Shown: piece after piece, positions 383 to 4,145 of the stretch | Numbering within the stretch: the stretch's first letter is position 1 | Layout of the letters: each line of letters begins with the position of its first letter | Virus record (IMG/VR): IMGVR_UViG_648276656_000001 | Coordinates: 1 to 4,145 of that record | DNA: 4,145 nucleotides | DNA from: a virus | Taxonomy: Duplodnaviria; Heunggongvirae; Uroviricota; Caudoviricetes | Strand: one strand, 5' to 3' | Notes under the pieces: model-generated | Told to the model about the DNA's origin: nothing | Databases searched by the model: none | The model's input: the letters and a program-made list of their open reading frames with translations, nothing else | Position numbers and translations under genes: made by a program

Positions 383-1033
383 TTAACTGGCGGAATTATT
401 CACCATCCTGCTCGGCGGTTCTGGTAGCGGCATCCAGTGGGTTACATTGCGGCTCTGCGTTTCGAAGAACTCCTCACCATTGCGGACAACATCAAAAAAC
501 TCACCGTTTCGATATTGCGCATAAAGAACGAATGCGCCATCACATAAAATAATTACGTGCTGACCATCATCCGGCATTCGCTCACTACAGCTTATCCAAC
601 TATCCGGAATTACCGGAGAGTTGCCGGGTTCTTTAATGTGCAAGCGAGGCTCACCATCTTTTGGTTCAGGCCACTGGCGTTCCATGTTGATCTTCAATTT
701 ATTTTCCATAGCAGCGGTAATTTCAGCATCACTGATACCAGCACGGCGCTGTGCATCCCACAACAGGAACTGCATATCAGCCCACTCGCTGAGATCGTCA
801 GGTTCGGCTGCGGCTTCCAGTGCCTCTTTTGAGAGGTGTTTCAGTGGACCAATGGGGCCAACGCAGCCAAATGTGGAGTCAGACCATTTGGCATGCTCGT
901 GGCGAATCTGTTCGCGTTCCAGCGATGCCAGTGCGATTTCATAAGCCCGACGCTCAATATTGTCTCGGACGTCCAGGCTGCCTATACGCTCTTTGATTTC
1001 TTTAATCAGTTCTTTGTCGGTGAAAGTGGTCAT
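383..1033 (-). CDS. MazG-like NTP pyrophosphohydrolase domain (DUF550-type, N-terminal) fused to a DUF551 domain (C-terminal); 216 aa
   Basis: ATG at 1033 is preceded by AAGGAG with a 6-nt spacer and lies 1 nt past the TGA of the upstream gene. The N-terminal half carries an all-alpha MazG-like signature (LSEWADMQFLLWDAQRRAGISDAEITAAMENKLKINMERQW; compare the EELADVL...LGID...KN.RR motif). The C-terminal half ends in the DUF551-like motif ...VTHWMPLPEPP. The track's longer version starting at 1156 overlaps the upstream gene by about 120 nt and has no SD. Domain names are from memory. Confidence 0.8.
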   Translation of the reverse strand: MTTFTDKELIKEIKERIGSLDVRDNIERRAYEIALASLEREQIRHEHAKWSDSTFGCVGPIGPLKHLSKEALEAAAEPDDLSEWADMQFLLWDAQRRAGISDAEITAAMENKLKINMERQWPEPKDGEPRLHIKEPGNSPVIPDSWISCSERMPDDGQHVIILCDGAFVLYAQYRNGEFFDVVRNGEEFFETQSRNVTHWMPLPEPPSRMVNNSAS

Positions 1034-2568: not shown

Positions 2569-2952
2569 TTAGAAGGGAATTGAATCGTCGTATTCAGGAT
2601 GATTTTGATGATTGCTACTTTGCTGCTGTTGGCTGTTTCCTGAAGTTGCAAATCCAATCTTTGCATTCAGTAATTCAAGAGTGATTGATTGACCATTTTG
2701 CCCCTGATAAACATCAACCCTGATGTTTTCTCCGGTAATTTCTACAATGCCACCTTCAACAAGAACACTACGGTAGTAATCCGCTTGCGCTCCCGGCTTG
2801 GCAAATACAACGGCGCTGTAGTTTGTCCATTCTTTCTTTTTTGTCTGGCGATCGTAATACTGAACGCCAGCACGGATGTTGAATCCGATATTTTCCCCGG
2901 CCTGAAACTCTCTTGCGGGCTTGTTTAGTCTTACAGTAATCGAGTGTGCCAT
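2569..2952 (-). CDS. ssb: Phage single-stranded DNA-binding (SSB-like, OB-fold) protein with C-terminal acidic tip ...EYDDSIPF; 127 aa
   Basis: ATG at 2952 overlaps the erf stop as TAATG and has AGGAG about 10 nt upstream. The C-terminus DDSIPF matches the conserved SSB tip (E. coli SSB ends ...DFDDDIPF) and follows a Gln/Ser-rich linker (SGNSQQQQSSNHQNH). The core (KEWTNYSAVVFAK...VEITGENIRVDVYQGQNGQ) resembles the SSB OB-fold. The track's 157-aa version begins inside erf and is rejected. Confidence 0.85.
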   Translation of the reverse strand: MAHSITVRLNKPAREFQAGENIGFNIRAGVQYYDRQTKKKEWTNYSAVVFAKPGAQADYYRSVLVEGGIVEITGENIRVDVYQGQNGQSITLELLNAKIGFATSGNSQQQQSSNHQNHPEYDDSIPF

Positions 2953-3557
2953 TAAGCAGCCGCTCCTTCTAATTCGTCTCGTCTTATGTTGTAAACGTCC
3001 TGCGCTTTGTGCTGCTCCGGTGTGCCTTCGAGCATCTTCCACGCTTTGGCGAACGCCTGTTTAAGCTCTTCCACGGTGTTTTTCTGCATTGCTGCGTCAG
3101 TGAATGCTTTTAGAACCTGTCCAGGTGTAGGTGATGGTTTTGATTGCTTTGCTGCTGCGTTCTGCTGATGTTTATGCTCGTCGGTATCTGCATCTTTCGC
3201 ATCATCAATGCCGAATAAACCATTGAGGCAATACTTGCGTGCATAAGAGCTTGTAGCTCCCGTAACTTGTGCAGAATCCATTCCTTTCTTGCTTTCTTCC
3301 TCTCGTGCTAGTGCGGTTGCCGTATGACTGTTTTCGCCATCGGTGATAGTTGCCGTGGCTTTCACGTAATACCGATCACCAATCAACACAACTTCATCGC
3401 TGATTGATAAAAACAGACCATTCAGTAACGGCTTAACGCCTTCAAGAATGTCTTCGCAGCTTCTGTATTTATATTTACCGAATGAGTTGTACTGATTCTT
3501 TGGCGCGTTCAGATTCTCCTGAATAGCTGCCAGTCTTGCATAAAATTCTTTGCTCAT
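2952..3557 (-). CDS. erf: Erf-family single-strand annealing (essential recombination function) protein, P22 Erf-like; 201 aa
   Basis: The protein MSKEFYARLAAIQENLNAPKNQYNSFGKYKYRSCEDILEGVKPLL...IGDRYYVKATATITDGE...GATSSYARKYCLNGLFGIDD matches my memory of P22 Erf and the Erf family over the N-terminal DNA-binding domain. ATG at 3557 is used; the track's TTG-extended start at 3587 has no SD. The SD for the ATG is weak (GAGA). Confidence 0.9.
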   Translation of the reverse strand: MSKEFYARLAAIQENLNAPKNQYNSFGKYKYRSCEDILEGVKPLLNGLFLSISDEVVLIGDRYYVKATATITDGENSHTATALAREEESKKGMDSAQVTGATSSYARKYCLNGLFGIDDAKDADTDEHKHQQNAAAKQSKPSPTPGQVLKAFTDAAMQKNTVEELKQAFAKAWKMLEGTPEQHKAQDVYNIRRDELEGAAA

Positions 3558-3658
3558 ATGTTTGTTCTCAGAATGGACATGGCCCAAGGAAATAACGCTG
3601 ATTTAATACTTCGACTCGGGACAAATTAAGGCATACCCGCATTCCTTCGCGGTCGCCA

Positions 3659-3817
3659 TTATGGCGATACCAGAGAGCTTTCTGCGTGTACATGCGTCTC
3701 TGTAACTTGCTCTCCTTCACTGTGGTTGCAAGTGACATGAATATCTCCTTCGTTACCGATTAATTCTTTCATCTGACGAATGAATTCTTCGTCTGACCAG
3801 TTATCTGTAAAACTCAT
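3659..3817 (-). CDS. Small acidic hypothetical protein, 52 aa (MSFTDNWSDEEFIRQMKELIGNEGDIHVTCNHSEGEQVTETHVHAESSLVSP), in the position of P22 arf
   Basis: Hand translation. ATG at 3817 overlaps the Kil-like stop as ATGA, and its TAA overlaps a further ATG (TAATG at 3661-3657). There is no separate strong SD (AGGA lies directly against the ATG), so expression would rely on translational coupling. Not in the ORF track because it is under the length cutoff. Confidence 0.45.
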   Translation of the reverse strand: MSFTDNWSDEEFIRQMKELIGNEGDIHVTCNHSEGEQVTETHVHAESSLVSP

Positions 3818-3966
3818 TTCCTGCGATACCACGGAAGGTTGATAGCTGATTTCATCGCTTTATTTGCTTCAAGCCACATTTTTGAATCACCAATAAATCT
3901 GGCTATTACTGCTTTGTTTTGTGCCGCACGAAGCATCTGGTGATTAATGGCTATTTCATTGCGCAT
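3814..3966 (-). CDS. kil: Kil-like host cell-division inhibitor peptide, 50 aa (MRNEIAINHQMLRAAQNKAVIARFIGDSKMWLEANKAMKSAINLPWYRRK)
   Basis: Hand translation. ATG at 3966 is preceded by GGAGG with a 4-nt spacer; an alternative ATG at 3936 has no SD. The core motif IARFIGDSKMWLEA resembles my memory of lambda Kil (...IATFIGDEKMFREA...), and the gene lies between a cIII-like gene and erf as in lambda and P22. Overlaps the cIII-like ORF by 16 nt. Confidence 0.6.
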   Translation of the reverse strand: MRNEIAINHQMLRAAQNKAVIARFIGDSKMWLEANKAMKSAINLPWYRRK

Positions 3967-4085
3967 AACGCCTCCAGTTGTTTCTTTGCTGCTCTGATTA
4001 ATTGTTTAACTCGGCGTGATAATTCAGATTCGTGCGGGTAGAAAGCGGACATGACGCCGCTACCCGCGAGCTGAAAGTGCATCAT
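3951..4085 (-). CDS. cIII: CIII-like peptide (putative FtsH inhibitor that stabilises CII), 44 aa (MMHFQLAGSGVMSAFYPHESELSRRVKQLIRAAKKQLEALCAMK)
   Basis: Hand translation. ATG at 4085 has a very good SD (AAGGAG, 6-nt spacer). The central stretch P-x-ES-L-x-R-(I/V)-x-(K/R)-x-L...K+L is a predicted amphipathic helix resembling lambda CIII (PSESLLERITRKLRDGWKRLIDIL, from memory), and the gene sits immediately upstream of kil. Confidence 0.6.
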   Translation of the reverse strand: MMHFQLAGSGVMSAFYPHESELSRRVKQLIRAAKKQLEALCAMK

Positions 4086-4145
4086 GGGTAACTCCTTATA
4101 TTTGATTGCATAACGAAAACGCCTCGAGTGAAGCGTTATTGGTAT

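Follow-up and report, generated by a model that had tools for sequence, protein, structure and literature searches.

CIII proteins fall into two classes, lambda-like and HK022-like, and the proteins of HK022, HK97 and H-19B are identical (Kobiler et al., PMC1838920). The essential region of CIII is an amphipathic helix, and the protein acts as a competitive inhibitor of FtsH (PMC1838920). Lambda Kil requires a helix-turn-helix core for ZipA-dependent disruption of the FtsZ ring, and the toxicity of lambda-type Kil through a block of FtsZ is documented (PMC3961180, PMC11762379). P22 Arf stimulates Erf-mediated recombination (Poteete et al. 1991, cited in PMC12315714, which describes its molecular function as not established). 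GenBank entries for cIII and kil from HK022/HK97-type phages date back to 1989–2000, Pfam families exist for both, and their mechanisms have been studied in lambda.

We compared with these systems a small-gene locus in a 4,145-nt stretch of viral DNA (the window, meaning the whole stretch analyzed). A preliminary description had translated three nested minus-strand ORFs of 44, 50 and 52 aa, the second containing the motif IARFIGDSKMW and the third joined to it by an ATGA overlap. All of these are present, but the set is one gene larger than described: a fourth gene, ORF56, had been overlooked. The features are as follows.

4118..4137, minus strand: candidate early-left terminator hairpin, from a pattern scan; function putative
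4085..3951, minus strand: cIII, 44 aa, from the ORF list of the window
3966..3814, minus strand: kil, 50 aa, from the ORF list of the window
3817..3659, minus strand: ORF52, 52 aa, acidic, from an ATG start (the mechanical list gives 57 aa from a GTG at 3832)
3738..3568, minus strand: ORF56, 56 aa, basic, between ORF52 and erf
3557..2952, minus strand: erf, 201 aa, Erf-family single-strand annealing protein (Pfam PF04404, E = 3e-44)

Small ORFs by themselves are unremarkable here: 61 of 20 aa or more occur in the window. We judge the small genes to be real because of their family matches, the 100% identity of the CIII and Kil proteins to deposited phage genes, and purifying selection. In the HK97/HK022 group of lambda-like phages, cIII, kil and the small acidic gene are already known or deposited.

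The region very probably belongs to a lambdoid phage or E. coli prophage of the HK97/HK022/HK106 type and covers the promoter-proximal part of its early-left (PL) operon. At the DNA level, positions 3500–4145 share 98.6–98.8% identity with HK106 and HK97 and 94.6% with HK022 and H-19B, and the records of all four phages label the corresponding ORFs CIII and Kil. In HK97, HK106 and an E. coli prophage the locus is preceded by cI, PL, N and a terminator and followed by erf, a 127-aa gene and abc2; the two records that run further, HK97 and E. coli, then have a gene for an excisionase, annotated as xis and TorI respectively. The hairpin at 4118..4137, about 30 nt upstream of cIII, has an 8-bp stem, the loop ACTC and a T-rich tail, and its sequence does not differ among HK97, HK106, HK022 and the window. 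It may serve as the early-left terminator, one past which N antitermination would carry transcription. A promoter scan of 3400–4145 found nothing exceeding shuffle expectation, and an Rfam search at E <= 1 found no match within the locus, its sole match being a sub-threshold STnc420 at 23–80.

This layout, a terminator-like hairpin followed by four tightly packed small genes and then a recombination module, would form the start of a delayed-early leftward operon. Repressor would keep it silent in a lysogen, and it would come on after induction or infection. Gene identities, conservation and arrangement are tool results here; the biochemistry ascribed to CIII and Kil is carried over from experimentally studied homologs.

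On its family matches, the 44-aa ORF is an HK022-class CIII. It scores 104.7 bits against the cIII protein family PF08134 (cut-off 25, E = 2e-30), matches the CIII PHROG phrog_550, and shows 100% identity in translation to the CIII proteins of HK022, HK97, HK106 and an E. coli prophage. We detected no difference from the HK022-class proteins (HK022, HK97, H-19B), and its gene occupies the corresponding slot, directly behind the N-region terminator and in overlap with kil. The excellent Shine-Dalgarno site and amphipathic helix reported for this ORF both held up: AAGGAG lies 7 nt ahead of the ATG, and residues 21–38 form an 18-residue helix whose hydrophobic moment of 0.72 is the maximum of the protein and was reached by 0 of 1000 shuffles.

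The relation to lambda CIII is looser. The 44-aa protein falls short of the lambda-class model PF02061 (12.4 bits, cut-off 25.7, E = 0.17), and BLASTP gives E = 0.68 for lambda CIII and 42% identity over 36 residues for P22 C3. Lambda CIII has 54 residues to the 44 here and differs in sequence outside the helix, but its hydrophobic moment peaks at the same position. Because the PF02061 score is below threshold, the equivalence of the two classes rests on the literature and on this common helix. By homology, the amphipathic-helix peptide would competitively inhibit the FtsH protease and so stabilize CII, favoring lysogeny.

The 50-aa ORF is, by the same kind of comparison, a lambda-type Kil. 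Its ATG is preceded at 5 nt by GGAGG, and its 5' end overlaps cIII by 16 nt. The protein covers positions 1–31 of the 31-position Lambda_Kil profile (PF06301; 72.6 bits, cut-off 27.6, E = 1.7e-20), matches the Kil PHROG phrog_2055 (E = 1e-35) and is 100% identical to Kil of HK97, HK022, HK106 and an E. coli prophage. These results, with those for the 44-aa protein, confirm the CIII-like and Kil-like identities first proposed. Against lambda Kil, 18 of 33 residues of the core (lambda residues 3–35) are identical, or 55%. The two proteins share the FIGDxKM motif in the core, a slot downstream of and overlapping cIII, and a basic C-terminus. They differ in length (47 aa in lambda, 50 aa here) and in their N- and C-terminal extensions: the protein here ends in PWYRRK, which is basic yet is not the RSK motif of PMC11762379 (YRRK here, the RSSK motif there).

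Kil function follows the lambda protein by homology. The helix-turn-helix peptide would block FtsZ-ring assembly in a ZipA-dependent way and cause filamentation once PL is derepressed; in a lysogen, repressor would shut PL and keep kil silent. The portrayal of kil as a latent toxic locus of the prophage is thus correct under a repressor-controlled PL, yet it is textbook knowledge for lambda-type kil. The accompanying statement that Kil-type peptides block FtsZ and are toxic holds for the lambda type.

P22 and lambda each match part of the gene order. P22 Kil shares with the 50-aa protein a gene name and an operon slot, but it has 62 residues, is acidic and belongs to a separate protein family; BLASTP between the two gave no match even at E = 100 and word size 2. 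The comparison with P22 is therefore valid for gene order only. The preliminary description had likened the order cIII-kil-(arf)-erf to both phages. It matches P22 save for the extra ORF56, and it matches lambda only as far as cIII-kil, after which lambda continues with gam-bet-exo.

ORF56 is clearly a protein-coding gene. It has an AAGGAG Shine-Dalgarno site 7 nt before its ATG, overlaps ORF52 by 80 nt, matches phrog_1723 (E = 9e-36) and has counterparts in HK97 gp42, HK022 gp42 and Sf6 gp29 (gene 29). An initial scan of viral contigs yielded 80 ORF56 loci with identical proteins; diversity was obtained with diverged queries. In 85 nucleotide haplotypes many residues, for example R14, L22, L37, L51 and G52, never change although as many as six synonymous codons encode them, and over codons 27–56 either dN is 0.13–0.20 with dS saturated or dN/dS is 0.08–0.27. 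This synonymous change at invariant residues and the low dN/dS carry the coding assignment. The protein is basic (pI 10.0), ends in an invariant NQRYFLGxCPF, and is modeled by AlphaFold2 as a two-helix hairpin (mean pLDDT 92); a Foldseek search of the model against the PDB returned no match at E <= 0.001, only generic helical hairpins.

ORF56 accompanies recombinase genes of several kinds. In every locus with sufficient downstream sequence, a strand-annealing or recombinase gene follows within 1–16 nt; its product may be an Erf, of which several subtypes occur, a Rad52-like protein or one of AAA_24/Sak4 type. Below identical ORF56 sequences, Erf and Rad52-like genes alternate among otherwise similar loci. 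Such association with three recombinase kinds suggests that ORF56, instead of serving a single family, may work through a partner common to all of them, for example SSB, ssDNA or a host factor, or may couple the translation of the recombinase. Its stop codon forms part of the ribosome-binding site of the next gene (TGAGGTG) in many loci. In the window, erf lacks a clear Shine-Dalgarno site (ctgagaacaaacatATG, window 3546–3570, minus strand) and starts 10 nt past the ORF56 stop, which suggests that erf translation may be coupled to that of ORF56. The proposed product is a basic helical-hairpin protein whose stop codon would abut the recombinase start. Section 12 of PMC12315714, a survey of lambdoid recombination modules, contains no mention of an ORF56-like gene.

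ORF52 is an acidic ORF (pI 4.4) with one constrained half. It matches phrog_2123 (E = 9e-42), and its counterparts, including HK022 gp42.1, Sf6 gp30 (gene 30), HK106_039 and many others, are deposited as hypothetical proteins. We gathered diverged loci for a codon-by-codon comparison. The first 26 codons, upstream of the overlap with ORF56, are under purifying selection, with dN/dS of 0.19–0.39 at dS of 0.7–1.3 and conservative replacements (F/I, D/E, I/V, K/Q). The C-terminal half, which overlaps ORF56, has dN/dS above 1 in its own frame and 0.13–0.38 in the ORF56 frame, so the tail is unconstrained as protein sequence. AlphaFold2 models one helix (residues 9–20) with disorder elsewhere (mean pLDDT 63).

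A rival reading denies ORF52 a protein function of its own: it would serve for coupling or as a leader, bringing ribosomes from kil towards ORF56 and erf, and its overprinted tail would be accidental. Several observations fit it. The only candidate Shine-Dalgarno site, an AGGA 2 nt from the ATG, is not usable, and the ATGA junction, in which the start overlaps the kil TGA, is invariant in 52 haplotypes, though the upstream gene differs. The tail tolerates change where ORF56 is constrained, the length varies from 31 to 62 aa by lineage, and PGAP usually leaves the ORF uncalled. The openness of the frame adds no support for a protein: among about 10 loci without ORF52, four have the same −1 frame over the ORF56 start open for 29–42 codons. 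Because this frame can be open by chance, we relied on dN/dS instead. That measure is what makes the leader reading quite unlikely in our estimate, since purifying selection with conservative substitutions acts on codons 1–26; moreover, the N-terminal module is retained beside varying upstream and downstream genes. The reading we prefer is that ORF52 is translationally coupled to kil via ATGA and has a conserved N-terminal helix, and that its tail would be unconstrained read-through into ORF56. The 80-nt overlap and the unconstrained tail leave the amount of ORF52 protein made in question.

The preliminary description had put the 52-aa ORF in the place of arf; a reading of it as a true, divergent homolog of P22 Arf that would stimulate Erf-mediated recombination is not supported by family-level comparison. 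The likeness is real as far as it goes. Both proteins are small and acidic (pI 4.4 and 4.1), both genes sit after kil and ahead of erf, and both proteins carry a [FW]SDEEFI motif near the N-terminus; ORF52 also matches the Arf PHROG phrog_2445 weakly (E = 0.044), and a close relative (P0016) is named "accessory recombination function protein" by one database source. Yet the 57-aa form of ORF52 has no match to the Pfam Arf model PF17585 (Phage_Arf) at E <= 1, whereas all 42 P22 Arf relatives found carry it, and hhalign of the two families gives a probability of 14% over 16 columns. Nothing in ORF52 corresponds to the remainder of Arf, the conserved QQINLAAERQN...WDEF among it. The surroundings differ too: P22 arf overlaps the start of erf, whereas ORF52 is separated from erf by ORF56 and its tail overlaps that gene. 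Short ORF52 relatives of 31–35 aa, which share the first 18 residues and then have another acidic tail, are flanked by a kil-like gene upstream and by a RecT module, not Erf, downstream, in loci without ORF56. True homology to Arf is therefore unlikely, and on these comparisons we treat ORF52 as a positional analog of P22 Arf, not as a member of its family.

ORF52 and ORF56 are best read as two genes. Compared with the window, HK106 and HK022, HK97 (AF069529.1, locus 3929–4180; equivalent to window positions 3680–3690) has two extra bases, C and G, 7 nt apart, and a T>G change. These join the frame of ORF52 to that of ORF56, which gives the 83-aa gp42.1 of the HK97 annotation. One could suppose that the two ORFs are a single gene, fused in the window by a programmed +1 ribosomal frameshift, and further fusions of 81–83 aa with differing junctions do occur in our collection (P0007, P0014, P0017, P0023, P0030, P0046, P0049). 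We regard this as very improbable. Most of the fusions are singletons, their junctions are scattered over many sites, and shifts into the third frame also occur (P0033, P0036, P0045), a pattern expected of random mutation or of errors in sequencing. The ORF56 frame starts at its own ATG behind a strong AAGGAG Shine-Dalgarno site, many loci have ORF56 without ORF52, others have ORF52 without ORF56, and no slippery site was identified. A programmed frameshift or fusion gene as the general state was rejected on the scattered singleton junctions, the independent ORF56 start and the separate occurrence of the two ORFs. The HK97 fusion and the others of 81–83 aa may be either sequencing errors or real variants.

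The remainder of the window begins with the recombination module. The erf product is 74% identical to P22 Erf. Onward from erf lie a gene for a 127-aa protein, Abc2 (PF11043), a DUF2737 gene and a 153-aa ORF with no Pfam match, followed by an Ea22-like protein (PF13935) and then a dATP/dGTP pyrophosphohydrolase-DUF551 protein. The 127-aa protein (2569–2952, minus strand) ends in EYDDSIPF, resembling the acidic C-terminal tip of bacterial SSB; it matches the ssb model TIGR00621 weakly (E = 0.008) and no Pfam model, and the HK022 record labels it "likely analog of P22 Abc1". The four small genes would thus be followed by erf, an SSB-like gene and abc2.

Farther along, a 216-aa protein (383–1033, minus strand) joins the PF04447 dATP/dGTP pyrophosphohydrolase domain to DUF551 (PF04448). 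Scanning positions 1–450 gave five terminator-like hairpins where shuffles predict 0.3; they lie at three minus-strand sites (35–48, 228–247 and 258–279) downstream of the DUF551 gene. The site at 33–48 carries two minus-strand terminator calls, and its plus strand reads as a terminator too. The window as a whole is a mosaic: parts of it are matched in 3797 of 5426 complete E. coli genomes, but none of these genomes, and no phage record, matches 80% of its length at a single site.

Annotation of the small genes is uneven. The small-gene segment is matched in 2055 of the 5426 complete E. coli genomes. The phage records of HK97, HK022 and HK106 annotate all four small ORFs. PGAP, in RefSeq E. 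coli genomes, calls the cIII ORF under the label "hypothetical protein" and identifies kil as "host cell division inhibitory peptide Kil"; in two E. coli genomes inspected, it called ORF52 in one and ORF56 in neither. The expectation that automated annotation would miss all three described ORFs therefore fails for cIII and kil and holds in part for ORF52, which is called inconsistently. No NCBIfam model matches any of the four small proteins, and the lack of one for HK022-class CIII accounts for its "hypothetical" label.

As a practical point, gene calling in bacterial genomes treats the two overlapping small genes that separate kil from erf inconsistently or passes over them. The sole research potential of the locus lies in the uncharacterized ORF52/ORF56 pair beside the recombinase gene. 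Our likeliest guess is that the two have accessory roles in phage recombination or its expression. A more specific and tentative possibility is that ORF56, possibly with ORF52, may be a general accessory factor or regulator of phage single-strand-annealing recombination.
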